IMG/VR virus record: IMGVR_UViG_3300043447_000415
Span: 1 to 64,000 of that record
Length of the DNA stretch: 64,000 nt
Reading direction: 5' to 3' (one strand)
From: a virus
Taxonomy: Duplodnaviria; Caudoviricetes
The position numbers were made by a program, and so were the translations under genes. The notes under the pieces were generated by a model. It saw only the letters and a list, made by a program, of their open reading frames with translations. It was not told where the DNA came from and made no database searches. Below, piece by piece: positions 1,766 through 64,000 of this stretch (positions are counted from its first letter, which is position 1; each line of letters begins with the position of its first letter).

Positions 1766-1827
1766 GGGAAAGCAATGCCCAATCTGGGTACTGTCGTACC
1801 CAAACTGAGCATTTCCTCACTGGTGAG

Positions 1828-2628
1828 TTAGGCGAGGTCGCCGAGCAGGTCGTCCAGCTCTTCGTCGAGCGCGGGGCCAGGCTTGGCAGCCGGCTTGGCT
1901 CGTGCGACAGGTGCCGCATCTTCCACTTCGTCATGCGCCAGCGCGGGACGGGTGGTGGTGGGCTTGTCGTTGCCCAGAATGCCGGCAACGCTGTTGATCG
2001 CCGACAGTGCCTTGCGCTTTTGCTCGTCGCTTTCCATCTGCACGTACTCGTCCAGGTTGGTCAGCTTGGCGTAAGCAGCTTTGGGAACCGCTTGCTTCTT
2101 GGGGCTCACGCTCACGGCGTACTTGGTGTTCAGACCCTTGCCTTCGCGAGTGATCGTGAAGATTTGCGCCTCGTCCGGATCGAACATGGAGCCGGCCCAC
2201 TCTTCGACGGTATCCAGCAACTGACCGAAGGCAGTCGAACGAATCTCGAGGATTTGAGGGGTGTTGGGGTCTTCGCTGTCCAGTGCCAGCACGTTCATCA
2301 GGAACGAACGACCAGCTTTGGCCTTCTTCAGCAGTTCAACGGTCTCGTCGTCCGTTGCGGCGTGCTGGGCGCGGTTCAGACCATCGCAGATCGGGCATGC
2401 TTTGCCATAGATCGCTTCGTTGCAGGGGTAGACGGCTTGGATTTCGTCGGCAGCGTTCTTGATGTAGTGCTGGCCGAAGTCGTGATACCAGACATGCTCT
2501 TCGCCCGCACGCCATCCAGGCATGAGGATGTAGCGGTTAGAGCCGGGTTGAGGCTTGATCGTCTTGTCTTTCGACTTGAGAGCGGCCTTTTTCTGTTTCA
2601 TCAGGTCGAGAAGTTTGGAGGTATCCAT
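1828..2628 (-). CDS. Single-stranded DNA-binding protein, T4 gp32-like
   Basis: HY..C...CPICD zinc-type motif, aromatic-rich core, acidic C-terminal tail (EELDDLLGDLA), located in recombination cluster. Confidence 0.7.
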   Translation of the reverse strand: MDTSKLLDLMKQKKAALKSKDKTIKPQPGSNRYILMPGWRAGEEHVWYHDFGQHYIKNAADEIQAVYPCNEAIYGKACPICDGLNRAQHAATDDETVELLKKAKAGRSFLMNVLALDSEDPNTPQILEIRSTAFGQLLDTVEEWAGSMFDPDEAQIFTITREGKGLNTKYAVSVSPKKQAVPKAAYAKLTNLDEYVQMESDEQKRKALSAINSVAGILGNDKPTTTRPALAHDEVEDAAPVARAKPAAKPGPALDEELDDLLGDLA

Positions 2629-2733
2629 TTGGTAAGTTCCAGGTTGGTTGAGGTTTAGTGCCTTAGACGTTCGTCAATCAGCACAGTCATTATAGTCACC
2701 CATGACGTATCCGCACACGGGGAACCACAATTT

Positions 2734-3567
2734 TTATTGAACGCCACGACCGTTCTTGAAGGCGGCTCTTGCACGCTCGGCAATGGACTCGCGCTCGTCC
2801 TGAGCGGCCAGCATTCGCACGCCGCCTTTGAATTCTTCGCGGCGATCGGCACCCAGTTGCACCATCATGTCCTTGCGATCCGAGAGGGAGATCACCAGCG
2901 ACTTGTTGATGGCGGCGATGGTGTCGGCCTCGATGACGGTGTTCTTGCCCTTCAACCAGCGCGGGTCGAGCTTCACGGCGTTTTCCACCATCTTCTCAGT
3001 GACCTTCTCAGTGCCGGCCGCCAGCGCCTTGCGGTGCTCGTCGTAGAGCTTGGCTTCCAGAACCTCGAAACGCACCTTCAGGCGGGCGTGTTGAGCTTCG
3101 GCTTGGGCTGCTTGCGAACCGTAGAAGGCGCGAAGACCCGACTGCTCCATCATCGCGGCGTCCAGCGTCGCTTCCGTGAGCTTGGTGTCGCGGTTGAACG
3201 ACTGAACGTCCACGTAGAAGTTGAGCTTCTGGCCAGGTGCCTTCTCGCTCGTCTCGGGAACATCCGCGCTCACCTCGATCTCCACCTCGGCGCCAGGCAG
3301 TACGCGACGCTCCACCTCGACAGCCGGCTCGGCGGCGGCAGGTTCAGGTTCGGGTTCGACGACCTTGGGCTTCTTCGGCGCTGGTGCTTCCTTGACAGGT
3401 TCAGCGACCGGCTCGGGAGCGGGCTCAGGTTCGGGCACTGGCACGGGCTTTGGAGCGGGTGCAGGTACGGGGGTCGGCGCGGCGGCCGTCATCTTGGTTT
3501 GCTCCGCTTCGAGTTCGTCGAGCAGGGCTGCGATCTCCAGATCGTCCATAGCGATTTCGGTGGTCAT
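2734..3567 (-). CDS. UvsY-like recombination mediator with Pro/Glu-rich N-terminal extension
   Basis: Helical C-terminal half (LEAKLYDEHRK...KVTEKMVENAVKLDPRW...SLSDRKDMMVQLG) resembles the UvsY family; sits next to gp32-like and recA genes. Confidence 0.5.
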   Translation of the reverse strand: MTTEIAMDDLEIAALLDELEAEQTKMTAAAPTPVPAPAPKPVPVPEPEPAPEPVAEPVKEAPAPKKPKVVEPEPEPAAAEPAVEVERRVLPGAEVEIEVSADVPETSEKAPGQKLNFYVDVQSFNRDTKLTEATLDAAMMEQSGLRAFYGSQAAQAEAQHARLKVRFEVLEAKLYDEHRKALAAGTEKVTEKMVENAVKLDPRWLKGKNTVIEADTIAAINKSLVISLSDRKDMMVQLGADRREEFKGGVRMLAAQDERESIAERARAAFKNGRGVQ

Positions 3568-3604
3568 AGGTTTCTCCAGTTGTCAAAAAATTGCTGACGG
3601 TTTG

Positions 3605-3647
3605 ATGTTAGCGTCAAGTTTCAGGGGTTTGAAGTCATTATTGACTT
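3605..3647 (-). promoter_or_regulatory. Promoter TTCAAA-N17-TAACAT with perfect operator 3632-3647
   Basis: -10 at 3605-3610, -35 at 3628-3633, AAGTCA TTAT TGACTT. Confidence 0.6.
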
Positions 3648-3652
3648 ATACG

Positions 3653-8030: not shown

Positions 8031-8708
8031 TCAGGCTCCGATAAAGAGTTTCGCTTCCGAGTAGCGGATTTCTTCAATCTCTTTCAGCGCTTTGGCGACT
8101 TCAGGCTGGCTGACATCGGAGATCATGCTGATGAAGCTGGCGATGTAGCGTGGGCTGACTTGCACCATGCACCGAGAGTTGTGGCCCATTGAGCGACCGT
8201 ACTCCGCGTAGTGTTGCGCCTTGTGGACTTCGGTCATAACTTCGTGCGGAGGCGCGATCGACCACTCGAGGATCAATCCAGCCAGCGGCGAAATCGTCTT
8301 GACCATGTGCTCAAGAAGTTCCGTGACCCGGTAGCTGGACTCTGGGTCGGCAGACGGATCGGCGTAGTCCTGCATGATGCTGCTCAGGTCGGCGTCTTCG
8401 CCGTCACCGGCCGCCTGACTGAGCTCCTCAATGCTGACTACGCCATACTTCAGACGCTCCTCGATCAGGCCCTGCGCCCAACGGTTCAAGCGGTTGTAGG
8501 CGCACATGAAGTAGTAGGTGGAGAACTTGAACCCTTTTGACTCGTCGAACCCCTCGAATGCTTTGAGGAACACGATCGACATCTCCTGAAACACGTCCTC
8601 GTAGTCGATGACGACTTTAGCCGTTGCCAGACGACTGAAGCCCTTCCTCGATACAGCGTGGACGAGCCCCATGTTGGCCTTGTAGAAGTCGGCCGATGTC
8701 ATGTTCAA
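8031..8708 (-). CDS. Phage sigma70-family-like factor
   Basis: Region 2 signature NMGLVHAVSRK...YEDVFQEMSIVFLKAFEGFDESKGFKFSTY; acidic region-3-like linker; divergent region 4. Confidence 0.75.
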   Translation of the reverse strand: MNMTSADFYKANMGLVHAVSRKGFSRLATAKVVIDYEDVFQEMSIVFLKAFEGFDESKGFKFSTYYFMCAYNRLNRWAQGLIEERLKYGVVSIEELSQAAGDGEDADLSSIMQDYADPSADPESSYRVTELLEHMVKTISPLAGLILEWSIAPPHEVMTEVHKAQHYAEYGRSMGHNSRCMVQVSPRYIASFISMISDVSQPEVAKALKEIEEIRYSEAKLFIGA

Positions 8709-9889: not shown

Positions 9890-9945
9890 GAGACTCTCCA
9901 GATAGTGTTGAAAATTCAACGGGTTAAAAAAATTGCGATGTATGA

Positions 9946-9988
9946 ATCATAAGGTGCGATCTCAGGAGAGACAAGTCACGGGTGACTT
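9946..9988 (-). promoter_or_regulatory. Promoter TTGTCT-N17-TATGAT with perfect operator 9973-9988
   Basis: -10 at 9946-9951, -35 at 9969-9974, AAGTCA CGGG TGACTT. Confidence 0.7.
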
Positions 9989-12163: not shown

Positions 12164-12215
12164 ATGTCATGAGTGACTGATAACGCATTGTCACCGTTGA
12201 ATCTAGGGAGAACAA
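12164..12215 (-). promoter_or_regulatory. Promoter TTGTTC-N17-GACAAT with operator 12164-12179 near the start site
   Basis: Read directly upstream of the CobT-like gene. Confidence 0.45.
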
Positions 12216-12262: not shown

Positions 12263-12448
12263 CTACATGGAGATGCGAGCCGCTCTGCCGCAGGCGGTGC
12301 TGACGAGGATCAGCTTGCCCAGGTGGACGTGCTCACCCACATGTAGTATCGTTGATCCAAGGTCAATTGAAGTGCTGACTGCCAAACTCTCAAGGAGTCG
12401 GCATAGTTCTGAGACGTGAATTTCGATCGCTTCTTTAAACTCGGGCAT
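12263..12448 (-). CDS. Small hypothetical protein
   Basis: AGGA upstream, strong terminator right after stop; no recognisable motif. Confidence 0.4.
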   Translation of the reverse strand: MPEFKEAIEIHVSELCRLLESLAVSTSIDLGSTILHVGEHVHLGKLILVSTACGRAARISM

Positions 12449-12466
12449 AAGCGCCGTCCTTATAAA

Positions 12467-13087
12467 TTATCGCTTTGTGTTTTGTCTATATAGTTTAGTC
12501 ACCAGTAAGTAAATCCTTCTTGTGGAACTTGACCTCCGTTCGGGCTTTGCCCGCAGCAGGATGTTGCTCACTCGGGTGAGCATGTAGTGGGCACCCCGAT
12601 CCTCGACCTTCTGGAAAATCGACCGCACCTCGTCGGCCGAGAGCTCCGTGATGCGCCTGGCGCCGTGCGTGGCCAGGATGTTGGCTTTGGCGGCGGTGTT
12701 GTAGTCGTCGTAGTGCCGCGAGCTCCACTCGTGCCGGTTGTGCTCGAGCCATTCAGTGATGACTTCACTCACCGACTTGGCCGCCTTGTTTGCGCCACGG
12801 GCCTGGCGCCGTAGCTCCACGGGGTCAGTGCCCAGTTGCACCGCTTCCCTAGCTTGCTCAGCCAGGGTCCGTGCCGTACTCAGCTTGACCTGCGGGTAGG
12901 TGCCCATCGAGAACGTCTTCCGTACCCCGAGCAGGACATAGTCGAGCTGCCAGGACATGCCGCCCGTGCGCCGGACGACGAGGTAGAGCCCTGAGCCGTC
13001 GCTGATCTTGGTGACGGAATTCTCGGACTCGCGAGCCTCCCTGATGCGCTTCTCGAGCTCCTTCTGGGACAACTCATGCAGTGCCAC
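12467..13087 (-). pseudogene. Truncated P4-type tyrosine integrase (arm-binding and core-binding domains only)
   Basis: DGSGLYLVVRRTGGMSWQLDY...KTFSMGTYPQVKLSTAR arm-binding domain plus SAM-like domain; similarity stops near LLRA (~12550) and no catalytic R-H-R-Y domain follows. Confidence 0.85.
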
Positions 13088-14494: not shown

Positions 14495-14675
14495 TTGGGG
14501 GCTCCTTCGGCTCCAGCTTTCGAGTCAGCAACTGCAAGATGTCCGTCATCGTGAACAGCGGAACTTCCTGGCCGTTGCGATCAACCATCTGGACAAGCCC
14601 ACCCACTCCCGTTGGGAACACATGGGTGGTCCAGGGAAAGGTGGCTTGAATCTGCTTGAACTGTTCGTCAGTCAT
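14487..14675 (-). CDS. Small hypothetical protein
   Basis: ATG three bases after ligase TAA. Confidence 0.65.
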   Translation of the reverse strand: MTDEQFKQIQATFPWTTHVFPTGVGGLVQMVDRNGQEVPLFTMTDILQLLTRKLEPKEPPSA

Positions 14676-14678
14676 GAC

Positions 14679-16037
14679 TTATGCCTTGTCGTCGCGGAAT
14701 CGCTTGAAGCGTGGGTGACGCAGAGAGCCGTCAGGGGTGATCTCGTGGAACTCGACTTCAATGACGCGTCCAATCAGCGCTTCGCGGTCTTCCCAGAAGC
14801 TCTGACGTTGGCTGTCGCTGAGACCGCTTCCGACGTTCACGCGCACCGCATCAGGGTGGTCATGGTTTGCCCCATGTGCTCCGTTCTCGTGGCAAGTCTT
14901 GTCGAAGGCGACGATGATCGCGCCCAACATGCCCTCGTACTTGCCGGTGCCCTCCTCGAAGCCCACGATCGGCACGTCGGTCGATTCTTCGGCCTTGATC
15001 TTCATCCAGGCGTGGTTGCGGCGGCGGTAGTACGGCGCGTCGTCCTTGATGATGAGTCCTTCCAGACCTCGTGCCTGCACCGACTCGTAGAGGGCGTCAA
15101 TTTCGGCTTCGGAGCTCACCAAGTACCGAGGCAGCAGGTGAACGGGGCCCGACTTGCCGGTGGGCAGCAACTCGTTGAGCACTTGGCGACGTTCGGTGTA
15201 CGTGTGCTTGCTCGGCACCTTGTCGTCCTTACTGAAGAGCGACATGGGCAGGATGTCGAACACGTTGAAGATCGCGTCCGTAGCCTGGGCATCCTTGCGT
15301 CGAACTTCCGAAACGGTCTTGTTGAAGCTGCCAGAGACGATTTCCCCGTCGAATACCACGGCGAAGTCTTCGCAGTCCACGCGATCCGAGAAGTACTCGG
15401 CATCGTAGTCGTCGCCCAATCCACACAGATCGGCACGGAAGTCGTCGATCAGCCTCAGCAGCGGCCCCTTCAGGTGGTCAAAGGTCGTGAACTCCTTGCC
15501 CGAGCGGGAGAAGAAGTGAACTGAGGGCTTGGTGATGTCCACGAACGCAAGCACCCGCACGCCATCGAGCTTGGGCTCGGCAACGACTGGCCATTTCTTG
15601 ACTCGATGCGCCTCGAACTTGTGAGCCAACATACAGTCGAAGGTGGGCACCGTGCCTGGGATGGCCTTGTTGACGGTGGACTCCGAGAAGCCCGCCCGCA
15701 GGTCTTTGCTGACGATGCGCCAGAGCAGTTCGGCCGACTTGGTGGTCAGACGAGTCAGCTCCGATACCAGCGACTCGCGAGCCGCATTGCCTGTCAGGGT
15801 GCGAGTCTCCAGATTTGTCAGAAGCACCCATGTCTGAGTGTCAAACACGCCATCGAGATTGGTCAGCACTTCGGGCCGTTTGGCGATGCCGTAGGTCTTG
15901 AAAGGGTTGAGCGCCGCCTCGAGCACCGCAAGAAACTTGCCGTTGGCGCCGTGCTTGGCGACGAGCGCTTCCTTGCCGGTCTTGCTGGAGGTTGAGGCGA
16001 TCTCCTCGATCGCGTCGAAGATTGCATCCGAGTTCAC
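14679..16037 (-). CDS. ATP-dependent DNA ligase
   Basis: EPKLDGVR (motif I), VFDGEI, FNVFDIL, EGLIIK, WMKIK, LRHPRF; GTG start overlapping upstream TGA. Confidence 0.95.
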   Translation of the reverse strand: MNSDAIFDAIEEIASTSSKTGKEALVAKHGANGKFLAVLEAALNPFKTYGIAKRPEVLTNLDGVFDTQTWVLLTNLETRTLTGNAARESLVSELTRLTTKSAELLWRIVSKDLRAGFSESTVNKAIPGTVPTFDCMLAHKFEAHRVKKWPVVAEPKLDGVRVLAFVDITKPSVHFFSRSGKEFTTFDHLKGPLLRLIDDFRADLCGLGDDYDAEYFSDRVDCEDFAVVFDGEIVSGSFNKTVSEVRRKDAQATDAIFNVFDILPMSLFSKDDKVPSKHTYTERRQVLNELLPTGKSGPVHLLPRYLVSSEAEIDALYESVQARGLEGLIIKDDAPYYRRRNHAWMKIKAEESTDVPIVGFEEGTGKYEGMLGAIIVAFDKTCHENGAHGANHDHPDAVRVNVGSGLSDSQRQSFWEDREALIGRVIEVEFHEITPDGSLRHPRFKRFRDDKA

Positions 16038-20263: not shown

Positions 20264-20557
20264 TCAGACCGCTTTGTTTTGATCTTCAGGATTGGTCCAG
20301 AAGCATTCGATGGCGTGCTTGAAGATGACGAACACCTGATAGCCGCCGCCGTTGGGGCGATCGACCTTCAGGCTGATCGTGTACTTGTCTGAGTGCTTGA
20401 TGACGCCCTTCATCGGGGGTGCGTCCGAGCTTGTAATCAGAGCGACATTGACGACCGCTCCTGCGGCCTCGAGTGCTTTGAGAAATGCTTCGTGGCCTTT
20501 GGGCGTGACGGGCTTCTTGATGAGGGGCGCTTTGCTGCGCGGGGTGATGTCGGACAT
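20264..20557 (-). CDS. Hfq/Sm-like RNA-binding protein
   Basis: GVIKHSDKYTISL (Sm1-like) and VIFKHAIECF (Sm2 F/YKHAI). Confidence 0.75.
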   Translation of the reverse strand: MSDITPRSKAPLIKKPVTPKGHEAFLKALEAAGAVVNVALITSSDAPPMKGVIKHSDKYTISLKVDRPNGGGYQVFVIFKHAIECFWTNPEDQNKAV

Positions 20558-20618
20558 AGTGTTCTCCGTGATATGAAAATTGCTGACCTGCTCAGTATAG
20601 CTCAGGCGTGACTGACAT

Positions 20619-21371: not shown

Positions 21372-21451
21372 AGAAGGTAAGAGTAAATTCACTCATGAAG
21401 TATATTGAATATACGCGGGGCGAAAATTCCCCGCGTATTTCCCCGCACCGA

Positions 21452-22216: not shown

Positions 22217-22283
22217 GTACTACAAACCTTGAAGTTGATCCTGTCGTTACTATACCTCAGTCATCCGTGACTGACGCGCCGGA

Positions 22284-23996: not shown

Positions 23997-24102
23997 CGCG
24001 GACTTTCAAGGTCAATTTCGGATGCCGGATTCTAACCGATGTGAAATCATTCGTGAAGTACTTTCGTCCTTTGTCGAATTTGCACAAAACCTTATATAAG
24101 GT

Positions 24103-24345
24103 TTAGTCCTCGTCACTCAGGCCAGCTTTGATCTGTTCAGCAGGCTGTTCGCGCACTGGCACAGGCTTGTTGGCAAGTGCTTGTGCGGCATTCTGCGCTT
24201 GCACTTGTTGAATGATTTGACCTTCCAGTTTGTTCATCACGGTGCGCGATGTCTTGGAGGGCAGTTCGTTCAGACCTACCATGATGGCTTCGATTTCTTG
24301 GCCAGTCAGGTCGTTGAGCTGGAAGGTTTGCTGATTTTGTTGCAT
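24103..24345 (-). CDS. Small fibre-associated hypothetical protein
   Basis: GGAG RBS; position downstream of the fibre; GLNELPSK..MNKLEGQI type. Confidence 0.6.
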   Translation of the reverse strand: MQQNQQTFQLNDLTGQEIEAIMVGLNELPSKTSRTVMNKLEGQIIQQVQAQNAAQALANKPVPVREQPAEQIKAGLSDED

Positions 24346-24395
24346 GAGGTTCTCCGGTTATGTCAACAGTGACTTACCCATTATAGCCAACAAGC

Positions 24396-24749
24396 TCAGG
24401 GAGCTGCGGGAGTTTCGGGTTCAGGTGCGGGTGCCCAGGGCAGTGGGGCGCTGTCGAGCGCTGCCTCTTGAACCATCTTGTCGAGCACGGACTGGATGTG
24501 CGCTTTGATGCTGGGCATACGCTCGACTTCGGCCGCTTCGATCCAGGCGACAACGACTTCCGGCGTCAGCGAAGTCAGCGGGATGAAGTCTTCCGCGTCG
24601 GGCTCGCCCATCATGGTCTTCTGAGGCAGCTCGAACGACTGGCCGTTCTCGGTGCCCTTCAGAGTCCACTCGACGTGCTTGACGACGGACTCCAATTCGC
24701 CAACGGTTGTCGTGCGAATGGCCGTGATGGTGATAGTGAATTCAGTCAT
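24396..24749 (-). CDS. Fibre-associated hypothetical protein
   Basis: ATG three bases after fibre TAA; DFIPLTSLTPEVVVAWIE...LPW pattern typical of fibre-adjacent small proteins. Confidence 0.7.
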   Translation of the reverse strand: MTEFTITITAIRTTTVGELESVVKHVEWTLKGTENGQSFELPQKTMMGEPDAEDFIPLTSLTPEVVVAWIEAAEVERMPSIKAHIQSVLDKMVQEAALDSAPLPWAPAPEPETPAAP

Positions 24750-24752
24750 GAC

Positions 24753-27700
24753 TTATCCTTCAATGAGTTTGGAAACAAGGGCTTCGAGTTTAGCGACTCG
24801 GGCGCGGAGATCGACATTATCTTTTGCCAGTTCAACGGCGGCGGCGAGCGCTGCGTTGCCGTAAGCGACAGAAAGCAAATCCTCCTTCTCATGATAGTCC
24901 ACCGCTTCAGGGAGAACTTTCTGGAGAGATTGTGCGGAAACGCCAACTTGACGTTTGCCGGTGTCGGTTCGGTCAAAGACGCCCGACTTGACTTGAGCCA
25001 ATCTGGCAACAAAGTCGTCGGCCAGGTCCGACCAATTGGTCTTCAGCTTCTCATCCGAGTAAGCCGTGATGTTGCCGGCTGCCCAGATCGAGCCACCGAA
25101 GGTGGCGTTGTTGTTCGTCAAGTCCCAGTACACGGGCCAGTAGCCGCCAACTTGAGCCCACGAGGTCGAGTTGTTTGCACCTCGAAGGATATACATCAGG
25201 TTGGAATTGCAGTGCAGCATCGCACTGTTGTTGTCCGTATCCTGGAGATAGATCGTGGGACTTGCGTTATTCACCGTCACGTTGCCGGTGAGAGATAGGT
25301 TGCCGGTCAGAGACCCGCCAGCGAGTGGCAGGTAGCTCGAGAGCGTCGATGACGAGACTGCGTCAGTGATGCCGTAGCCCGCGACGGTGGTTGGTTTGCC
25401 GCTCACGCCACTCCAGGCAACCGAACCTGCACTGCCGGTGACGTTGATGCTCCATGTGCCCGAGGCTCCACCGCCCGACAGTGTAGGTGCATAGCTGGCG
25501 ATGTTCTCGCTCGTCATCATGGCGCGCCAGCCTGGCGCGTAACCACTGCCTTGGTCGTTATAGACCAATACCTGGAAGCCACCCGCGCCCGTTGTGGGGC
25601 GCGTAATGCGGACGTGCTTTTCAGCGCTGTTGATCCACGTTTCGATCACGCAGCCAGCCATATCGACTGTGCCGAACCCTGTGTCGGTCAGGTCATTGTT
25701 GCCCGCGTAGTCCCAGGCGCACTTGGCAACCGAATGGGCGAAGTTGAACATGCCCAGCGTCGTGAGGTGGGCGATCAGTTGCGCTGTTGTGCAGTTCGCG
25801 TTAGTGCCGTTGGGGTTAATGTAGATTGTGCCAAACGACTTAAAGCCCGAGACCGAGCCCGCGCTGCCGGTGATGTTGATGCCCCACGTACCTGAAGCAC
25901 CGGAACCTGTCAGTGACGGCGAGTAGCTGGTGTAGTTGCCTGCGTGGAGGACTACGTTGTTGTTGACGTATGAAGCTGATGGTGTAACCGCAAAGTTAAC
26001 GCCCGTCGCAGAAGTTGATCCGTTTACGGAAACACCAAATGTATCTGCGCCACCAATACCAGCACCACCTTGAAAGTAGCTGATGCCGTATGTAGTTGCG
26101 TTTCCAAACGACCAGATTGGGTTGCGTACCCCACCGTAGTAGACGTCGTTGCGAAAGCCGTTGTTCCCGCCCGATGTCACTGCACCAATAAACGAGCTGT
26201 AGCTGGTGTAGTTGCCGCTGTGCAGGTACGGAAGGTTGCCGCTGTACCGATACAACTGGCCGTCTACCAATACATCTTTATTGAAGTAGAACGAAGGTCG
26301 GTCCGTTTGAAAGTGGCTGTGCGACGTGTTCAGGGGGCCGATAGTCACATAACCATTTGCGTTCACAAACGACGCATAGTTGTTGCCGTCAAGGTGCAGG
26401 CCGTATGCGGTGTTGTCTCTGCTAAATCGAGCAATCCCGCCAAACGCGTCGATGTGCGCCGTGCCGTTCGTGTTTTGGCCGACCTGAAGCTGTGTGTTGA
26501 TACGAACGCTGCTGGAGCTAAGAGCAAGCAATGTTGCCGGGGTGACCCCACTTGCGTTTCCAACACGAATGCGAAGACCGTCAAAGACGTTCATCTTCAT
26601 GCCGTCCCAACCACCCTCGCCGTCGATGTTGTTGTAGTTGTTGTAGATCGAGTGGTTAGCGTCGTTGTAAGTCGAGCTGAATGACAAGCGCTGTCGGCTG
26701 ACGTTCAATGCACCTGTAACCGTGCCACCACTCAAAGGCAAGGCGTAGGAGCTGTAGTTACCATCATGAAGCAGCGTGTACCAAGCATTCCAGGTGCTGT
26801 CGATACCGTTGCGAATGCTTAGCTTTGGTTGACCAGATGCGTTAACCCCGCTCCCGTTTGCAAACGCAAGTTGATACGACGAGTCGCCGGTACTTGCGCT
26901 GGTGCCAGTCCAAGGGCTAAACGTCATCACGCCTGCGTAGTTGCCAGAGCCGTTGCCGACACCAGCACCCACAAAATCAAAGTTTACTGTTCGCGTGAAG
27001 CTGTTTGGAAGGCGATCAGAGAGGTTGCGTGGGCCGTCTTCAAAGCCAATCCTGCGTGCCGATCCAGTAACGCTAATTCCCCAGATACCAGAAGCACCTG
27101 AGCCACCTAACGAGGGGCTGTAGCTTGTGTAGTTGCCAGCGTGCAGGACTTGATTCCCAGCTTGCTGGATTGCTCCTTCGACGTTCAGGCCGTTTGTCGG
27201 GTTGCTGGTCGCAGCGTACCCAGAACCAATTGTCATGCCGCCGTTTACATGCAGCTTCTTGCCAGATACCGCTGAACCGCCGCCGCCAATGGCAAACGTA
27301 CTCGTCGAGCCGTTAAACCATGTGTAGTCGGTGCCCGCCACGTCAGTCCAGCTAATCCCAGCCCATGAGGTGCCACCCCCGTTAAGGATGATCTGGGTAT
27401 CGCTGGCATTTGAGAACGTAGTAACGCCAGTAACCGTACCGCCGCTCAGCGGAAGCGCATACGAGCTGTAGTTACCTGCGTGGAGCGCTTGGTTTCCACC
27501 AATCTGAAGCGTACCGGAGTCAAAGTACGTTGCAGCACCACGGATGTAGTTCACATAGCTACTGCCGTTGTAGTAGCCAAAATGTGTTTTGTTATCCCCT
27601 TGCCCGGTAGCGTAAGCGTGCGTACTAAAAATTGACACACCGGAGCTGATTCTTGACGAAGGTGTGGCCACAACAGCGCCACTGCCAAGGTTCACGATGT

Positions 27701-28587: not shown

Positions 28588-28605
28588 GGTTTATTCATTC
28601 GTGAC

Positions 28606-30681
28606 TTAGAAGGTTCCGCCGTCGATGGTGATTCCGTCAAACGTGGCGAGGTTGATGATCGAACCGCCTGTGATGGCCACAGCACCTGCGTTCTGGGTGG
28701 ACATCGTGCCCAGGCCGGTGATGTCGGTGTTGGGGATGGTTGCGGACGCCGTCATGGCGGCAGTGCCAGCACCCTTCACGTAGCCAGTCAGAGTCGTGGC
28801 ACCTGTACCGCCGTTGCCGACAGACAGAGCCGTACCAGACCAGTTCGAGTTGTTGATCGAGGACAGGACGGCCAGCGAGCCCAGGCCCAGGGTCGAGCGT
28901 GCGGCGGTGGCATCAGCGTCATCGACCAGTGTGCGGCCGAAGGCGGTAAAGGTCGCGAGTGCAGCGGTGCCGGAGCCTGTGAAGTAAGGCAGGCGGTCAG
29001 CAGCGCTGACCAGACCAGCCAGAGCCGTCAGTTCAGCATCCAGACCTTGAGCGTCGGTGATGCCGTAGCCAGCCAATGTGGTTGGGTTCGTACCTGCACT
29101 CACACGACCGTAGGCGTCAACGGTGACGCTGCGGTAGGTGCCCGCAGTACCGATTGTCGCGAGGTCGATGTTGTCGGCGTTGACGACGATTCGAGCACTC
29201 GAGGCGGTACCGATGTCGATGCTGTTGCCCGACTTGGTCAGGCCCATACCAGCGCTGATCTGGCCAGCGCCAGAGAATTGCTGGAAGGTGATCGCAGTGG
29301 TGTTCAGCGTGCCACCGGGTTCCACAGTGCACACAAAGCCCATGTCGGCGTTGACCGTACCGGACTCGGCGAAGACGTAAGCGCCAGGCAGCTCGAGCCA
29401 GGTGTCAGCATCCAGCGAGCGGGTCCAGGCGCCAGCGGCGACGACGTAGATACCGTTCTGCGAAGCGGTTGTCTGATCCTTGACCAGCACACGGTCGCCG
29501 GCGACGAGCGCGATGCCGTCGATGGTCATCGTGCCGGAGAGGGTTGCAATGTTGGCGGTGGTTGCGGCGCGGACGGACTGCTTGGGGTCGAGACCCTGCA
29601 CTGTCATGTCCACGTAGTTCTTGGTCGCTGCGTCCTGTGCGTTCACAGGGTCGGCGAGGTTGGTGATCTTGCGGCTGTTCAGCGACACGTCGGCCGTCGG
29701 CACAGCCATCTGGTCAAGACGGTTGGTGCGGACTTGAGTGTCGAAGTCGCTGATCTTGGCGGCGGTCAGCGTCGGGATGTCAGTCGCAGACAGTGTTGTG
29801 CCGGCGGTGGCGCGACCTTTCGCGTCAACGGTGAGCTTCGTGTAGGTGCCAGCGGTCACGCCGCTTGCTGCCAGAGTCAGCGCTGTCGAGGAGCCTGTTG
29901 TGCCGGTGCCGGTCGCGTCGCCCGTGAAGGTCAGCGAACTGGAGATCGAAGATGTCGAGACGGCCGTTACGCGACCTTTGGCATCAACCGTGATGACAGG
30001 CACAGCGGTGGCCGAGCCGTAGCTCCCGGCAGTAACGCCCGAAGCGGCCAGTGTCAGAGCTCCGGTTGCGTTTGCCGAGCCGTCGAAGTTGATCGTCCAG
30101 GTGGCGTCGCCAGTCGCAGAGATCGAGCGAGATGTTGCCAGCGTTGTTGCCGTCGAGGCGTTACCGCTCAGAGCGGCAGTGATGGTGCCGGCCGCGAAGT
30201 TGCCAGAGGCGTCGCGAGCGACAACTTTGGATGCGGTGTTGACGCTCGTCGCATCTACCGCGAACGTCACTCCACCAGAGCCGTTGAACGTGCCGCCAGT
30301 CAGGAAAGCTCCTGCCGTCAGCGCGTTGGTCGTGTTCGCAGTGATCGTGATGTTGCCGGAACCGTTGAACGACACGCCGTTGATCGTGCGTGCAGTCTCC
30401 AGAATCGTTGCCGTGCCTGCGTTGCCGCTGATGGAGCCACTGATTGTCTGGAGGAAGGTCTTGACGCCGTCGATGGTTTGCGAGCCTGTCAGCGCTGCGA
30501 AAGCGCCGCTACCTGCAATGGGAATGACAGAGGTTGCACTGCCGCCCGCTCCACCCGTGCCCGAGCCGTAGTAGAGCGTGAGGTCTTGTTCGTTGAATGC
30601 GAGTTCGGCGTTCTGGAGCGAGGCGGGTGCGCCTGCTGCTCCACCGGCTGCGCGGCGTTTGATGCGTACTGTATTTGCCAT
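28606..30681 (-). CDS. Tail fibre protein
   Basis: IKRR...AELAFNE N-terminus; [42 protein letters not shown] fibre motifs; ends DGGTF. Confidence 0.88.
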
Positions 30682-31314: not shown

Positions 31315-31358
31315 ATTCTAAGGCCGAAAAGCCGAGAATGTCAAGTCAGTCATGACTT
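31315..31358 (-). promoter_or_regulatory. Promoter TTGACA-N18-TAGAAT with perfect operator 31343-31358
   Basis: -10 at 31315-31320, -35 at 31339-31344, AAGTCA GTCA TGACTT. Confidence 0.75.
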
Positions 31359-32545: not shown

Positions 32546-32644
32546 AGACGTTTGCTCATTAGTGACTTATGGTTTGTGAGTTAGTGATATTTCTGCAAAT
32601 ACCACACCTTATTGCCAAGAATCAGTTTTCAATATGTCCTTGGA

Positions 32645-36721: not shown

Positions 36722-36767
36722 GTGTATTTCTCTTGGTGTCCGATATTATGTCACGAATGACTTTTGG

Positions 36768-44815: not shown

Positions 44816-44830
44816 TTGTTCACCTGTGAC

Positions 44831-47800
44831 TTATCGATACAGCAGGCCGCCAGGGCGCTGCTGCGTAACCATTTCTTCCATCACCACGCCACGCACCTTG
44901 CTGGCCACCCGCTTCCAGGTCTCGGCATCATCACCTTGGCCAGAAGAGGTCTCGCTTCCATCCTTGTTGACGACGATGTTGATGACCACGCCGCCTTGGT
45001 TGGTGGTCGTGTTGTTGCTGCCTGTCATCGTGACGGGGATGCTGCGGCCGTCAGGCAGTGGCACGTAGGCTTCGTTCATGGAGCCTTCACCGAAGAGCGC
45101 GAGCTGCGGGCTTGTAGCGATGCCGCCCTTGGCGTACTTGTTCAGTGGCATGGAGCCCATAGCGGACATGACGCCACCTTTGGCAAAGCCGAACAGGCTC
45201 ATGCCCAGTTTGAGCAGGTCGCCCATTCCACCGCCGCCACCGCCGCCACCGCCGAACAAGCCCATGATGCCGTCGAGCATACCGGACAGACCGCCCTTGA
45301 GGCTGTCGAAGAGGCCACCCATGGAGCCCTTGAGCGTGTCCCAGACAGTCGAGAAGTTTTCCTTCACCGAGTCCCAGACGCTGCTCAGCTTTTCCTTTAC
45401 GGCCGTGAACATCTCTTCTTCCGGGTTCTTCAACTTTCCGGACGTGGCGTTGATGACGTGATATGGAGCGTTTGCGGAGCCGTCGGCTTTGCCGGAAGCT
45501 CCAGCGCTTCCCAGGCCCAGCATGCCGCTCATCATGTTGGCGAAGCCGCCGGTCACGCTCGTCACCGCATCGCCCAGTACGTTGCGAATCAGGATGGTGT
45601 TCACATCCTTCAACGCACCGATCACCAAGTCCTTGAACTTGCCAACCTTCTCACCGTTCATCGCCTTGGTAATGTAGTCCATTGTCTGCTGCGCCCAGTT
45701 GGCCGAAGCCTGGTTCATCGCATCGACGGAGTTGCGCCAGCTATCGGCGAGCTTGTCGAGCGCCGACTTGGCGTTCTGCATGTAGCGCAACCATGCCTCG
45801 GAGCGGTACTGCGAGCCGGCATCCTCAAGATGGTTCAGTTCGCTCTGGTAAGCCGCGAAGCTTATGTGACCCGCCTGGAAGCGATCCTCGAGCGCCCACA
45901 GCTTCGCGTCTTCGTTGAGGGTGAACTCGCGCAGCTCTTCCTGGTAGGTGGCCACGGCCACCTGCTTGTAGTCCATCGTCGAGCGCATCCGAGCGATCTT
46001 CGAGCGCTCCACACCCTTGACCGTGTCCTCAACGAACTTCTTGTTCTCCTCGCGCATCTCGAACATCGAGCGCAGGTTGCGAGTCTCTGTTGCGTTGGCT
46101 ACGGCCTTGTTGCGCTGCGCCTCGATGCGCTGGTATTCGTCGCTGGTCTTGTCCAGTTTCTTGAGCAGCTCGTCGTACTTGGCGATGACGGAATTGAGCG
46201 CCTTGCTTTCCTTCGAGATACCGTTCGTTGCCGTCTCTTCACGAGCGGCGTCCAGGTCGCGCAGTGAGTCGGCGAGCAGGTTGTTCGAGGTTTCCTGAGC
46301 TTTGTTGGCGTCCTTGTAGCGTTGCTCCGTGGTCAGGTTGTTGATGATGTCCAGAACTTGCTTGCTCTGCGTCTCGGTCAACTTCAAGCCTGCGATGAAG
46401 TCATCGACGGACTTCTTGCCGTTGACGACTTCCTTCATGAACTCCGCAACGAAGCCTTTGCGTTTGTCGATGTTGCCAAAGCGCACCGGCACCTTCTCTT
46501 TGCCTTCGGCGTCCATCTCCTTGGTGTCGAACTTGCCCTCGGCGATGTCACCCAGCACGCCAACGGCGATCTGGTTCTTGATGTCGCCGATCTCTTTCGA
46601 GCCGATCAGAGCCTGCTTGTAGGCGATCAGCGCTTCAGCGGCGGCCGCTTTGGCACGCTCGGCTTCACGCAGGATCGGGTCTTCCTTCAGGTTGGGTTTG
46701 TCGTCCTTGCGAGTGGTGGGCACGCGGCCCAGCGACTGCTCGGCCTGCTTGATGGCGCTGCTCGTCTCTTCGATCTTGTCGTTGATGAACTTCAACTGCC
46801 CTTCAAGCGCCTTGCGTTTGGAGGGATCGGTTTCCGTCTTGAGAATGCCTGCAACCTCAAGCTGGCGCTCTCGTGCGTAGTCGAGCAGATAGCGTTCGCG
46901 AGCGATCACCAAGGCGTTTTTCTTGGCGGTGTATCGCTTGCTGATGGCGTCTTCTTCGGATTCAGTCAGCTTCTTGCCGCTCGCGGCAGCGGCGCTGCGA
47001 GCCTTGTCCAGCTCGGTGCGTTCCGCCTTTGAAAGCTCTGCCGCTTCACTGCGCAAGGCGTCAACCTTGCCCTCTGTGGCGCGACGGTATGTACGCTCGA
47101 ACTGAGAAACTGATCGTCCGACAGTTTCCTCATCCAGCAGTCGCGTCTGTTCGGCAGATTGTTTGGTGGCTTGCTCGTATACGGCGTTGCGCTCAGCCAA
47201 TTGCTTTTCGAGCGATGCTCGGTAAGCCGCCACATCAGCACCGCCCCGCGAATCACGGAAACCGGCGCCCAGCGCACGACTGATCGAACGAGCGGACGTG
47301 TCACCGTCCTTGTCCAGGTCGTTCAGAACCGTCTTGAGAGTCTTGATGGCTTTAGCCGCCTCGTTGGCCCGATCCGTGGCTTTGGCCAGGTCGTCCTTTG
47401 ATGCAACGCCCGCCTCGGTGCGCTTGACAACCTCCTGGAACTCCTTCCAGCGGTTCATGTACTCCCAGAGCTTCTGGCCGAGCGTGACGAGCACGCCGAT
47501 CGCGATACCCACCCAACCTCCGAAGGCATTGAAGAGCACGCCGGCGCCAGACATGGCTCGAGACAGGATACCCACCCCGGTCGCTGCGTTGGTCGCGGCC
47601 GTAGCTTGCTGACCCAGCAGACTGGCCATCATGCGAGCGTGTTGCGCCGCCAGCGCTGCGGACTCTGCCTGGCGATTGTTGGCAGTTGTGGCGTTGCGAG
47701 TTGTCTGAATCGATTGCAAGAGCGCGGCGTCGCGCGCCTTAATTGCGGCGATCTCAGCCTGAACTGCGGCGATGTTGCCCGCGTTGACAGCGGCGTTTGT

Positions 47801-50897: not shown

Positions 50898-50993
50898 TGG
50901 AAGCTCCTTTGCAAAGGGTTTTTGAAGTCACTACTGAGTGACTTCGCCGGTGCCCGGACTCTACCACAAGTGGGTGTAAAAGTCCAGCATTTC

Positions 50994-54477: not shown

Positions 54478-54511
54478 AAAAGAAAAGGGCGAGCCTTGTG
54501 AGCTCGCCCTT
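54478..54511 (-). terminator. Terminator after major capsid gene
   Basis: AAGGGCGAGC-N7-GCTCGCCCTT then TTCTTTT. Confidence 0.8.
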
Positions 54512-54547
54512 GATTCTACGTCAGTTGTGACTGACTCGCAACACCGA

Positions 54548-55513: not shown

Positions 55514-55575
55514 AAGTCACCGATGAGGCAGGACTATACCACACTTTGTGGCAAATTGCAAGTCATCGGTGACTT
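55514..55575 (-). promoter_or_regulatory. Capsid promoter TTGCAA-N17-TATAGT bracketed by two operators
   Basis: -35 at 55556-55561, -10 at 55533-55538; operators at 55560-55575 and 55514-55529. Confidence 0.75.
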
Positions 55576-58183: not shown

Positions 58184-58212
58184 ATCTTATACGTCACGAA
58201 TGACTTAGTCAA
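58184..58212 (-). promoter_or_regulatory. Portal promoter TTGACT-N17-TAAGAT with operator filling the spacer
   Basis: -35 at 58207-58212, operator 58191-58206, -10 at 58184-58189. Confidence 0.75.
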
Positions 58213-60184: not shown

Positions 60185-60227
60185 AATGTAGCGCGAAAGC
60201 AACAATTTGTCAAGTCATTCATGACTT
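60185..60227 (-). promoter_or_regulatory. Terminase promoter TTGACA-N17-TACATT with perfect operator 60212-60227
   Basis: -10 at 60185-60190, -35 at 60208-60213, AAGTCA TTCA TGACTT. Confidence 0.8.
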
Positions 60228-60611
60228 AGTACCTTGGCGCCCGTAGAGTGCTGCACAGGCGGCGAATGCCGCAGCCATCTCTTTGCTCGTTGTCTCCTGG
60301 GTCTCGAGCTCGCCTTCGTCGCCGAAGATGACCACGGCCCAGTGGTATCCGTCTTCCTCGCCGAACTCGACTTCGACCTTCAGGCCCGCAAGCACGTTCA
60401 GCGATTCGTCCAGGTTGCGGGAGAACCGCTCACCCACGAGCCAGTTGGTCTCATCCGGAACCACGTCGTTGGGCCAGACCTTGATGATGTCGTCCACGAC
60501 CTCGAACCGAAGACCCAGCAGCCGCATGATCTGCGTGTCCACCAGAAGCGCCAGGTCCGGGGTTTCCCCGCCGGGGTTTTCCTGCTCCGCGACAATTTCA
60601 GATTGATTCAT
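60219..60611 (-). CDS. Hypothetical protein
   Basis: Acidic ORF, FSRNLDES...AFAACAAL. Confidence 0.65.
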   Translation of the reverse strand: MNQSEIVAEQENPGGETPDLALLVDTQIMRLLGLRFEVVDDIIKVWPNDVVPDETNWLVGERFSRNLDESLNVLAGLKVEVEFGEEDGYHWAVVIFGDEGELETQETTSKEMAAAFAACAALYGRQGTKS

Positions 60612-60680
60612 TCAGTCACTCTTTACTTATATTTAATATACGGTAGAGAGAATTTCCCCGATTCGGGGAATTTCCTCGAC

Positions 60681-61001
60681 TCAGTTCTCGAACACCTCGG
60701 AAAGTTCATCCAAGAGGTCGTCCGGAATGGTCTCGACCAGTGACAGCTTCGGCTTTCCGACCATGATCTCGCCCTGGGTGGTCAGGCTGATGAGCGTGCG
60801 GGTGCGGCCCCGGCGCTTTTCTGGCGCGTCCTTTTGGATCAGACCATGTGCGATGAGTGCTCGGATCGAAAACTGGATGGATTGCTTGCTTGGCTTGTAC
60901 GACAGCCGCTCGATGAGCTGGTCCAGGTCAATGGCGCCACCATCGGGGTTTCGTCGCCCGATGGTGTTCAGCAGTTCGATTTGTTTGAGGGTCAGGTGCA
61001 T
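60681..61001 (-). CDS. Winged-helix (MarR-like) DNA-binding protein
   Basis: LTLKQIELL...IDLDQL...SIQFSIRALIAHGLIQK...RRGRTRTLISLT..G. Confidence 0.8.
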   Translation of the reverse strand: MHLTLKQIELLNTIGRRNPDGGAIDLDQLIERLSYKPSKQSIQFSIRALIAHGLIQKDAPEKRRGRTRTLISLTTQGEIMVGKPKLSLVETIPDDLLDELSEVFEN

Positions 61002-62193: not shown

Positions 62194-62497
62194 CGACGAA
62201 CCCCAGAATCTTGGCGTCGGTCTGTTCGCCAACCAGGCGGGCGACCTCGCGGCCGTGGCTGAACTTGACCAGCGTGGGCACCGACCGGATGTTGGTCTTC
62301 ATAGCGGCTGCGGCAGCGTGGTAGACGTTCACGTAGCCGACATTCATCACGGCCGCACCTTCCAGACGCTCGATTGCGGCTTTGACGCGACCGCACGGGG
62401 CGCAGTTGGGCGACGAGAAGAGCACGAACGACTTGGCGCCCTCTTCTTCGTTCCAGGAGCGCAGGATGGCTTCTTCAAAGGTTTCTTGGTCTGTCAT
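62186..62497 (-). CDS. Thioredoxin
   Basis: CAPC active site, NIRSVPTL cis-Pro, G.EVARLVG. Confidence 0.9.
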   Translation of the reverse strand: MTDQETFEEAILRSWNEEEGAKSFVLFSSPNCAPCGRVKAAIERLEGAAVMNVGYVNVYHAAAAAMKTNIRSVPTLVKFSHGREVARLVGEQTDAKILGFVDA

Positions 62498-63156
62498 GTG
62501 TTCTCCTTGAACTCGGCCGGCGTGCGGACGATCTCGATCTTTTCCCGATAGCGTTTTTCGATGTAGAGGTTCGGCGCCAGGTCGGCGACCATGTCGGTGT
62601 GGGTGGTGGCCACCATCAGCGTGGCGCCCATTTTTCGGGCGACCTTCTGGAGGTTGAAGGCGATGACCTTGGCGGTCGTGCGATCCAGCACGGCCAGGAA
62701 CTCGTCTGCGATCCAGACTTTGGCGCCCGATTCGATCAGCTTGGCGAGCTTAAAGCGGTAGCGCTGGCCGTCGGAGAGCTCCTGGGGCTTGCGCACGAAG
62801 AGATAGGCGTCGTTCAGCCCCGCGATGGACAACAGGTTGAGCGCCGAACTCGTGTCGCGGCCGATCTGGTCGATCAGCGGCTTGGTGGCGTCGAGCGGCA
62901 CCTCGTCGATGTCGGAGACGTGCAGACCTTCGGTGGCCATCTGCACCTTCAGCTCGCGCAGCGCCAGGGACTTGCCCGAGCCGGACTGGCCCGTGATGTA
63001 GACCACGTCGCCCTGCTCGATCTCGATGGGCTGGTTCTCGAAGATCACGAACTCCTTGTCGTCCAGGCCCAGCCCGAACGCTTCGGCGATCTCCAGCACC
63101 CGGTCGGTGCGGTCCACATGGGACTTGAATCGTCGGTCGAGGTGATACGTGCTCAT
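62494..63156 (-). CDS. Soluble ABC-family ATPase
   Basis: GQSGSGKS, LSDGQ signature, IADEF, ATTH; no permease nearby. Confidence 0.9.
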   Translation of the reverse strand: MSTYHLDRRFKSHVDRTDRVLEIAEAFGLGLDDKEFVIFENQPIEIEQGDVVYITGQSGSGKSLALRELKVQMATEGLHVSDIDEVPLDATKPLIDQIGRDTSSALNLLSIAGLNDAYLFVRKPQELSDGQRYRFKLAKLIESGAKVWIADEFLAVLDRTTAKVIAFNLQKVARKMGATLMVATTHTDMVADLAPNLYIEKRYREKIEIVRTPAEFKENT

Positions 63157-63281
63157 CGTTTGCCCAACCAGTAGATGCGGACCCATTCGACGAGGAACCA
63201 CGCGGCAAAGCTGCCCAGAAACACGCCAGGGATGGCTGCGATGAGCACAAGCCAGAAAAGGAAGGAGTTGATGCAGGTCAT
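63153..63281 (-). CDS. Small single-TM protein (42 aa)
   Basis: MTCINSFLFWLVLIAA...; overlaps both neighbours. Confidence 0.5.
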   Translation of the reverse strand: MTCINSFLFWLVLIAAIPGVFLGSFAAWFLVEWVRIYWLGKR

Positions 63282-63646
63282 TCGTCGTCTTTCGCGTTTT
63301 CGCGCTTCATGGCGCGCAGGTTCTTGTTGAACCAGCTCACAACCTTCGGGTTGCTCATCCACATCTCCACCAGGCCGTTCGTGACCTGTGTGGTGATGTG
63401 CTCTTCTTCGGCGCCGTCTTTAACGCCGTACACCCAGTTGATGGCGTGAATCAGCTCGTGCTGGACGACGTTCACCGCCCGCTGGCGATGCAAGGTGTCG
63501 TCGAGGTAGATGCGGAAGGTCTCGAAGTCCGTGATGCCGTCGCAGCCCTCGAGGATCGGGCTCTCGGCGGGCGTCGAGACGCTCAACCGGAACGTGTACT
63601 GTCCGATCTTGACGCGACGTGGAAGACCGCTGAATACGTCATTCAT
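63278..63646 (-). CDS. HExxH zincin-like protein
   Basis: VVQHELIHAI...EEH. Confidence 0.65.
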   Translation of the reverse strand: MNDVFSGLPRRVKIGQYTFRLSVSTPAESPILEGCDGITDFETFRIYLDDTLHRQRAVNVVQHELIHAINWVYGVKDGAEEEHITTQVTNGLVEMWMSNPKVVSWFNKNLRAMKRENAKDDE

Positions 63647-64000
63647 GACTTAGCCTCGGCGGTGGTCATGACGCCCTTGATGAAGCGCACGAACGCTTCC
63701 GCCCCGGTAACACCCATCTCTTCCTCGATTTGGGCCATGAAGCGGGCAACGTGACGCTCGTCTGCGCCTGGGATCGCTTTGAAGCCGAGCGCTTTGTCGA
63801 TCTTGACCTCTCGCGCATCCACTTCGGCGACCTTCTGAACACTTTCGTCCGCCTGCTTGGCTACCTCGACCTCGATGTCGTCCACGAACGCATCGGTGTT
63901 GAAGTCGCCCAGGTCGGCTTCCATGAACTCGAGTTCCTTCTTGTCGAAGATGCCTTCCAGGTCGAAGTCCAGGTCGGCGAGCTCCTTCTGGAGAATGGCG
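63643..64000 (-). CDS. ParB-like protein, C-terminal part (start outside window)
   Basis: Frame open to the window edge: AILQKELADLDFDLEGIFDKKEL resembles the tail of phage ParB-N proteins; the ParB domain itself is not visible. Confidence 0.5.
   Translation of the reverse strand, partial: AILQKELADLDFDLEGIFDKKELEFMEADLGDFNTDAFVDDIEVEVAKQADESVQKVAEVDAREVKIDKALGFKAIPGADERHVARFMAQIEEEMGVTGAEAFVRFIKGVMTTAEAKS

Follow-up and report, generated by a model that had tools for sequence, protein, structure and literature searches.

A dispersed 14-bp palindrome in an SSU5-type phage-plasmid relative, and a 434-like protein as its candidate repressor

The viral contig IMGVR_UViG_3300043447_000415, a metagenomic record in IMG/VR of 72,567 bp that is rated 68% complete, carries many scattered copies of the palindrome AAGTCA-N4-TGACTT. 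We analyzed its bases 1-64,000, and it is this whole 64,000-nucleotide stretch that is called the window below. The network of palindromes is confirmed to be real. In what we judge to be a somewhat better than even reading, it is the operator set of a phage-encoded, dimeric repressor of the 434-like immunity type, which would silence essentially every operon when the element is carried. The best candidate for the binding protein, judging from sequence and predicted structure, is a 147-amino-acid (aa) protein with a Cro/CI-type (XRE) helix-turn-helix (HTH) domain.

An earlier note on this DNA had listed five perfect 16-mers, starting at 3632, 9973, 31343, 55560 and 60212, and all five are where it placed them. 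Dinucleotide shuffles predict 0.02 such copies, and none of 100 shuffles reached five; the chance estimate given at the time (0.001 per 64 kb) was about 20-fold too low, which leaves the conclusion unaffected. With up to two mismatches there are 21 matches for 2.0 expected. Mismatch levels were calibrated against six composition-matched control palindromes. The counts, palindrome versus controls, are 5 versus 0 without mismatch, 5 versus 0 with one, 11 versus about 2 with two, 31 versus about 15 with three (about two-fold) and 168 versus about 125 with four, where the excess is gone. Because the controls reveal an excess down to three mismatches, about 24 junction copies with up to three mismatches are credible. 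The roughly 28 copies originally claimed must be reduced to these, since the four-mismatch copies at 1814, 16974, 50006 and 12496 are at chance level. Each listed coordinate does hold the sequence ascribed to it, and the inner TCA-N4-TGA is kept by all listed copies except 12496 and 60613. An unbiased search ranks AGTCA-N4-TGACT first among all 5-Nx-5 palindromes of the genome (7 versus 0.04 expected), and this 14-bp palindrome is the conserved core. The view that every copy lies at a gene junction or promoter holds as a strong intergenic bias: intergenic DNA makes up about 10% of the four genomes counted and holds 59 of their 69 exact cores. The earlier note had overlooked three intragenic copies with two mismatches (9151, 12750 and 56068). 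A presumed second motif in the relative G001, TCAGT-N4-ACTGA, turned out to be the same motif in a shifted frame.

Outside the contig, 120 perfect 16-mers occur in 80 capsid-anchored IMG/VR loci (1.1 Mb, 41-66% GC), and each complete relative has 10-34 exact cores; a relative of 113 kb, with 18 exact sites, resides in Massilia sp. TN1-12. The core is the constant part, with flanks reading YAGTCA..TGACTR in some clades. It is the top palindrome in elements of Beta- (Massilia, Paraburkholderia, Chitinibacter), Gamma- (Methylophaga-like, Photobacterium) and Alphaproteobacteria (Magnetospirillum, 10 copies in 21 kb). A check of host chromosomes, set beforehand as a refuter, found 50 of 51 copies on the phage-plasmid contig in three complete host genomes. 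The Massilia genome (6.3 Mb) has 18 of its 19 copies there, and those of Magnetospirillum (3.8 Mb) and Chitinibacter (3.4 Mb) have all of theirs, 19 and 13. Since the motif is common to three proteobacterial classes yet confined to phage-plasmid contigs, its distribution indicates that the binding factor must be phage-encoded. That the phage instead exploits a global regulator of its host would agree with the sigma70-type promoters on which the sites lie; the same confinement, the spread of hosts over three classes and the lytic relatives devoid of the motif make this extremely unlikely. As the earlier note had maintained, the motif is not of the CRP/FNR type, its half-site being unlike TTGAT or TGTGA, and no CRP/FNR-family domain (cyclic-nucleotide-binding plus C-terminal HTH) was found in any protein scanned.

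More than 950 PLSDB plasmids have a capsid gene related to that of the contig. Its nearest cultured phages are siphophages of about 105-120 kb: Rhizobium RHEph10-like, Pseudomonas nickie, Stenotrophomonas BUCTxx99, Xanthomonas JGB6 and Salmonella SSU5. Sequence comparison therefore indicates that the contig is a member of the SSU5-type siphophage/phage-plasmid supergroup. Identity to these phages is only 36-44% for DnaE and 55-62% for the capsid, and megablast against cultured phages returned no match to the contig. Among named hosts, the closest belong to the Burkholderiales (Massilia, Paraburkholderia and a betaproteobacterial metagenome-assembled genome). Phage genome size is about 105 kb; G001, a complete relative of 107,050 bp, is colinear with the contig at 76-93% nucleotide identity. 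The motif is not present in the nearest cultured phages (DnaE identity 42-44%), and the lytic relatives nickie, BUCTxx99 and JGB6 have no dominant palindrome. SSU5 (NC_018843.1) has a dispersed motif of its own, AAACAAnTTGTTT, in 14 copies that lie mostly about 13 nt past GATAAT boxes in its 80-95 kb early region, as well as 8-13 copies of a TAAGTA..TACTTA type in its structural and replication regions. SSU5 yielded no homolog of the 147-aa protein.

The position of the copies relative to promoter elements is just as telling as their sequence. When 190 non-identical instances from the contig and its relatives are aligned in the direction of transcription, the core is flanked upstream by T-A, and TTGACA appears at +13 to +18 and TAnnnT at +36 to +41 from the motif start, with a 17-nt spacer. 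The best sigma70-like promoter was scored around 126 intergenic sites of six genomes, 88 of which have a good promoter. Site centers fall at -41.5 in 13 of these 88, against about 1% in random intergenic controls, at -36.5 in six, and at -19.5/-18.5 in 22, within the spacer and abutting the -10 box; a looser group spans +1 to +16. The peaks at -41.5, at -19.5/-18.5 and around +1 place the motif over predicted sigma70-like promoters or in positions that would block them, and about 40% of sites are clearly occluding relative to the predicted promoters. Sites of the -41.5 type cover the first two bases of the -35 hexamer. All five perfect copies of the window belong to this type (60212 by inspection), and they head the recombination, replication, fiber-assembly, capsid and packaging operons (Table 1). 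The capsid promoter is bracketed by the copies at 55560 and 55514, which are 46 bp apart; in relatives, sites ahead of the XRE gene show the same spacing.

Many copies sit at gene junctions of a single-strand transcription unit and could form a 6-7 bp stem with a 4-nt loop, as might be expected of an RNA hairpin that serves as a processing site, a stabilizer or a terminator. Such a role is highly improbable. At -4.4 to -7.7 kcal/mol the stems are weak, and they have no U tract; the motif keeps fixed distances from the -35 and -10 boxes, and what is conserved across 41-66% GC is the half-site sequence, not the pairing. Of the affected pairs in imperfect copies, 400 are broken and 94 are GU pairs, and compensation is seen in only 12; selection therefore acts on the half-site sequence and not on an RNA stem. 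The core inference of the earlier note, that one dimeric phage protein controls the replication, recombination, head, tail and fiber operons in the manner of P1 C1, is thus supported by a motif that is phage-specific, conserved in relatives and held at fixed offsets on sigma70-like promoters.

The 147-aa protein emerged from a phyletic screen in which the 140 predicted proteins of G001 were compared with four other motif-positive genomes and with the lytic nickie, BUCTxx99 and JGB6. Only the XRE gene is present in all motif-positive genomes and in none of the three lytic relatives. It adjoins the CobT-like gene in every genome compared and is divergent from all neighboring genes; two to three operator-like sites, often about 46 and about 100 bp apart, lie upstream of it. 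As anchors, CobT gave 7 loci and CobS 23. The gene was also found in all 12 further virus records searched that are at least 90% complete; 11 of these are motif-positive and the twelfth, the Acinetobacter plasmid G014, has a variant operator. G032 (94% complete), which is XRE-negative, has only 3 identical copies, and the XRE-positive G033 has 14. The homolog in Acinetobacter plasmids differs in its recognition helix. No AGTC-type sites were found in G014; this plasmid has 13 AGTAAGnnCTTACT sites, all intergenic and each abutting an AATAAT -10 box. Its half-site, AGTAAG..CTTACT, is switched within the same 14-bp frame, and the position is clearly repressive.

The Pfam HTH_3 match to the XRE protein is weak and below the curated cutoff (E=0.0019, 18.6 versus 23 bits), and a single-sequence search of the PDB gave marginal matches only. 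A 21-sequence profile against the PDB retrieved "Immunity repressor protein" 8bny (E=1.6e-5) and 434 Cro (0.012). The AlphaFold2 (AF2) model has a predicted local distance difference test score (pLDDT) of 87 and matches 434 Cro in Foldseek with a template modeling (TM) score of 0.81 and a root-mean-square deviation of 1.7 Å. Over its full length the model is similar to Stl, the SaPI repressor, and it has a helical C-terminal domain; the protein has no detected LexA/S24 peptidase domain. Profile search, model and Foldseek agree on a five-helix Cro/CI HTH domain in which the recognition helix comes after a conserved turn; the HTH aligns with the 434 repressor (Q..IA...GF-KPN-ITMIKQGKTK-P). A 61-aa open reading frame of the window (12263-12448), considered for its cro-like position, has no detected HTH.

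The binders originally named, a winged HTH (wHTH) protein (60681-61001), a sigma-like protein (8031-8708) and the ParB-like proteins, all occur in the motif-less lytic relatives as well; the fallback suggestion of "any repressor outside the window" came closest to the Cro/CI-type gene of the relatives. Presence in the lytic relatives also led us to reject, besides the sigma-like and ParB-like proteins, two conserved proteins of 233 and 248 aa. Because the contig encodes two proteins with a ParB_N domain (63643-65145) and its family includes phage-plasmids, one could envision the copies as dispersed centromere-like sites. Indeed, parS sites are 16-bp palindromes, and N15, a linear plasmid-prophage, has its partition sites scattered among phage genes. 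This interpretation is nevertheless very unlikely: SSU5 and the three motif-less lytic relatives also have both ParB-like genes, no partner ParA was seen next to these genes, and a centromere has no need of about 25-35 sites at precise promoter offsets.

A different phage protein, either the MarR-like wHTH protein or an unrecognized regulator, might act mainly as a class II activator at -41.5, switching on the late and replication promoters and repressing others from core-promoter sites. We regard this as unlikely, although still to be reckoned with. A 5-N4-5 palindrome at -41.5, the mark of class II activation, is found at the five perfect sites and at 13 of 88 overall, and the geometry is that of FNR and CRP at class II promoters and of λ CI at PRM. 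Moreover, the wHTH gene is syntenic across the supergroup, the promoter of its operon bears a site just past the -10 box, and survival of the full operator set in a contig without the XRE gene is easier to understand if the binder is still encoded. However, the lytic BUCTxx99, JGB6 and nickie possess the wHTH gene and have no dominant palindrome, and the gene was not found in the motif-positive Chitinibacter element. Its recognition helix is nearly invariant and is the same in enteric relatives without AGTC sites, and none of the other conserved proteins is distributed as the phyletic pattern requires. Good -35 hexamers (TTGACA twice, TTGCAA) are present in three of the five -41.5 promoters, which is not typical of promoters that depend on an activator. 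The large share of clearly occluding sites, which reaches 13 of 13 in the Acinetobacter plasmid, also speaks against an activator.

In the contig studied here, the divergent gene for the 147-aa protein and the C-terminal (catalytic) half of the integrase have been lost relative to G001. The remaining scar still aligns with the upstream region of the gene, including a half-intact operator (AGTCA-CCAG-TAAGT) at 12496, and is joined directly to the middle of the integrase gene. The junction was found in no other IMG/VR contig, so the deletion rests on one assembly. By analogy with the mycobacteriophage D29 (see below), the contig is probably a derepressed, obligately lytic derivative of a temperate parent, with its operators kept, unless a copy of the repressor is located in the unassembled third of the genome.

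If the 434-like protein is a repressor, a dimer would occupy each 14-bp site, with one HTH per AGTCA half-site. RNA polymerase would be blocked by binding within the -35/-10 spacer, at the -10 box or near +1, and sites at stop/start junctions inside operons might serve as roadblocks; the copy at 14665, which lacks an evident promoter, may be such a site. From -41.5, the protein would either hinder sigma region 4 or contact it as λ CI does at PRM. With some 25-35 sites per genome, a single protein could silence the packaging, head, tail, fiber, lysis and replication operons together, and the silencing would be held while the element is carried as prophage or plasmid.

Several observations weigh against this scheme. 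The five perfect, presumably strongest, sites all have the class II activation geometry of λ CI at PRM rather than the one most obviously suited to repression. Protein and motif are linked by correlation, and co-variation is not clean, as the first residues of the recognition helix vary within AGTCA genomes (KPN, TPN, SPQ, SQN). The region upstream of the XRE gene is about as dense in sites (5.4 per kb) as intergenic DNA as a whole, and a fragmentary clade (G029-G031, 18-28% complete) is motif-rich without the gene at the syntenic place. Lastly, the candidate gene is absent from this contig, which has kept the full operator set; its deletion would be lethal if the protein were an essential activator, and the contig is known as a metagenome assembly only. 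Analogy with λ CI makes activation, or a dual role, possible for the -41.5 class. Silencing is favored over an essential temporal activator because the -41.5 geometry heads both late and replication operons and because lytic relatives do without the system. In a rather improbable variant, the 434-like protein would be a one-protein global switch, activating from the high-affinity -41.5 sites and repressing from the weaker core-promoter and junction sites. If this were true, the concentration of one protein would set the order in which the operons of a 100-kb phage-plasmid are expressed, with logic and operator sequence kept across alpha-, beta- and gammaproteobacterial hosts, and the repressor-less contig would need another source of the protein, such as a resident relative.

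These properties inspire analogies with multi-operator repressors: the system would work like P1 C1, L5 gp71 and the repressor of phiC31, and would differ from them by its symmetric, promoter-locked 14-bp operator and its 434-fold protein. In P1, one repressor acts on more than a dozen operators dispersed over a plasmid prophage of about 100 kb, which overlap promoters at varied positions. The likeness lies in a plasmid-prophage-type element with many operons under the scattered operators of one repressor. The P1 operators, however, are asymmetric 17-mers and C1 is not of the 434 type, whereas here the operator is a symmetric palindrome and the candidate has a Cro/CI fold; no sequence relationship to P1 was seen. 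Streptomyces phage phiC31 has a 17-bp inverted repeat at many intergenic places, bound by the phage repressor; the repeated intergenic inverted repeats are similar, although the phiC31 host belongs to an unrelated phylum. The DNA-binding fold of the candidate is shared with 434 and λ CI/Cro, a 14-bp palindromic operator is also that of 434, and a site spanning -50 to -34 reproduces the geometry of CI at OR2 relative to PRM. Unlike lambdoid phages, which have two operator clusters (OL and OR), these genomes have their approximately 25-35 sites singly or in pairs, one per promoter, genome-wide.

The closest parallel to the contig itself comes from Cluster A mycobacteriophages. The L5 repressor gp71 has an operator and about 24 stoperators, mostly in short intergenic spaces, and the consensus varies between related phages along with the repressor (PMC5712189, PMC9283540). 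D29 is a lytic derivative in which a deletion of about 3.6 kb ends in the repressor gene and about 24 stoperators are conserved (PMC5712189). Here too there are more than 20 sites genome-wide, which the contig appears to have kept after loss of the repressor gene. Stoperators, though, are asymmetric 13-mers that act in an orientation-dependent manner, and their repressor binds as a monomer that has two DNA-binding domains (PMC9283540); the present sites are palindromic and mostly locked to promoter elements rather than merely downstream of them.

From codon-position GC, the minus strand holds every real gene from 1 to about 65.1 kb. In the order of transcription, a ParB-N/SprT-like/ABC-ATPase/MarR-like wHTH operon is followed by a TerS-like gene, TerL, portal, scaffold and major capsid; then by an Ig-domain tail protein, tape measure, central fiber J and tail fibers; and then by a spanin-like gene and more fibers. 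The replication block comes last, with PhoH, DnaB, primase, an ATP-ligase, the truncated integrase, CobT-like and CobS-like proteins, a sigma70-region-2 protein, a DnaE-type polymerase, a gp32-like SSB and a 5'-3' exonuclease.

Table 1. Palindrome copies of the window, and genes bearing on the identity of the candidate binder (window coordinates unless G001 is named).
Feature	Coordinates	Strand	Placement relative to promoter elements	Genes and remarks
Operator, perfect	60212..60227		Center -41.5 of TTGACA (60213-60208)-N17-TACATT (60190-60185)	Upstream of TerS-like/TerL/portal packaging operon (minus-strand genes)
Operator, perfect	55560..55575		Center -41.5 of TTGCAA-N17-TATAGT (-10 at 55538-55533)	Major-capsid promoter
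Operator, 3 mismatches	55514..55529		Starts 3 nt past capsid-promoter -10	46 bp from 55560 copy
Operator, perfect	31343..31358		-41.5/-42.5 of TTGACA-N18-TAGAAT	Upstream of tail-fiber-assembly and tail-fiber genes; overlaps spanin-like TAA stop
Operator, perfect	9973..9988		-41.5 of TTGTCT-N17-TATGAT	Upstream of CobS-like AAA+/sigma-like/DnaE polymerase genes
Operator, perfect	3632..3647		-41.5 of TTCAAA-N17-TAACAT	Upstream of gene 2734-3567, gp32-like SSB and 5'-3' exonuclease genes
Operator, 1 mismatch	58191..58206		Within -35/-10 spacer (TTGACT-operator-TATAAG)	Upstream of portal gene
Operator, 2 mismatches	54518..54533		Spacer of TTGCGA-N17-TAGAAT, center -19.5	Just downstream of capsid gene
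Operator, 1 mismatch	36748..36763		Spacer after TTGACC	Upstream of tail-fiber gene 34814-36721
Operator, 2 mismatches	2693..2708		Overlaps TATAAT -10 box, center -18.5	Upstream of gp32-like SSB gene
Operator, perfect 14-bp core	22258..22273		Ends 3 nt before TATAGT -10 box	Upstream of PhoH-like gene
Operator, 1 mismatch	24360..24375		Starts 4 nt past TATAAT box, around +1	Upstream of gene 24103-24345
Operator, 2 mismatches	60613..60628		6 nt past TATATT box	Directly before ATG of gene 60219-60611; preceded by GGGAA..CGTATATTnAATAT
Operator, 3 mismatches	21386..21401		Same layout as 60613 (TATATT-caatat-site)	Overlaps start of gene 20619-21392
Operator, 2 mismatches	12164..12179			12 nt upstream of CobT-like start codon; same place kept in G001
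Operator, 2 mismatches	50925..50940			Leader of Ig-domain major-tail gene 50025-50897
Copy, 2 mismatches	14665..14680		No evident promoter	Stop/start junction (TAAGTCATGA), ligase gene/next gene
Copy, 1 mismatch	24739..24754			Stop/start junction (TAAGTCATGA), tail-fiber gene/DUF7936 gene
Copy, 1 mismatch	63636..63651			Stop/start junction within ParB-like/SprT-like operon
Copy, 3 mismatches	44817..44832			Tape-measure stop/next-gene start junction
Copy, 2 mismatches	28592..28607			Overlaps TAA stop of gene 28606-30681, then terminator-like hairpin
Copy, 3 mismatches	20599..20614		Intergenic, then TATACT box	Upstream of Hfq-like gene 20264-20557
Copy, 3 mismatches	32553..32568		Intergenic	
Copy, 3 mismatches	24044..24059		Intergenic	Upstream of gene 23658-23996
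Deletion scar	12449..12552			About 100 bp in place of 1.65 kb of G001
Truncated integrase	12467..13087	minus		206 aa, arm-binding and central domains only, versus 429 aa in G001
Candidate repressor gene	G001 85114-85557	plus		147 aa
MarR-like winged-helix gene (phrog_900)	60681..61001	minus		Poorer binder candidate

The junction copies at 14665, 24739, 44817 and 63636 (TAAGTCATGA) have no visible promoter. In three of them (14665, 24739 and 63636) one half-site is made of the TAA stop, 3 nt and the next ATG, so that the start of the downstream protein (M-T-D/E, M-N-D) is set by the second half-site. Between the capsid gene and the next gene, at 54490-54533, the operator-bearing TTGCGA-N17-TAGAAT has a strong terminator-like hairpin (GGGCGAGC..GCTCGCCC-T run) no more than 10 nt after it, an odd order for a simple promoter. 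A second conserved element, GGGAAnTT-N8-CGTATATTnAATAT, preceded by a GC hairpin, is present on the minus strand at 60629-60658 and 21402-21431 (2 copies versus 0 expected). Directly after each copy comes a degenerate operator, itself overlapping a start codon. Another palindrome, CTTATATAAG / GCTTATATAAGC, occurs four times (24091-24100 in the window, 65184-65193 and 70782-70856 in the contig); two of the occurrences adjoin operator copies, and three related copies cluster in a 75-bp stretch near 70.8 kb. A second regulator might bind this palindrome, or it may be origin-related. At the far end of the contig (71072-72482), four CCTAGGnnnGCCTAGG copies within 1.4 kb lie in an iteron-like region. 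Two proteins of the replication block have faint matches: the CobS-like AAA+ protein (8705-9919) to an N-terminal ROS/MucR-type zinc finger (E=8e-5, below the curated cutoff), and a 97-aa protein (20264-20557) to Hfq (E=1.4e-5, 25.1 bits versus a cutoff of 27).

SSU5-type phage-plasmids are widespread, and many are found in clinical Klebsiella, Escherichia coli, Acinetobacter and Yersinia. In the literature, we found no account of the motif or of a regulon in SSU5-type elements, and none of how lysis versus plasmid carriage is controlled in SSU5-type phage-plasmids. The present analysis flags a natural repressor-deletion variant and yields, for one large branch, a regulon composed of an operator, about 25-35 promoters per genome that it would control and a named candidate repressor. 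For these poorly annotated genomes, the map of operators can also serve as one of promoters. Finally, sister branches that use the same 14-bp frame with switched half-sites would be predicted to represent distinct immunity groups.

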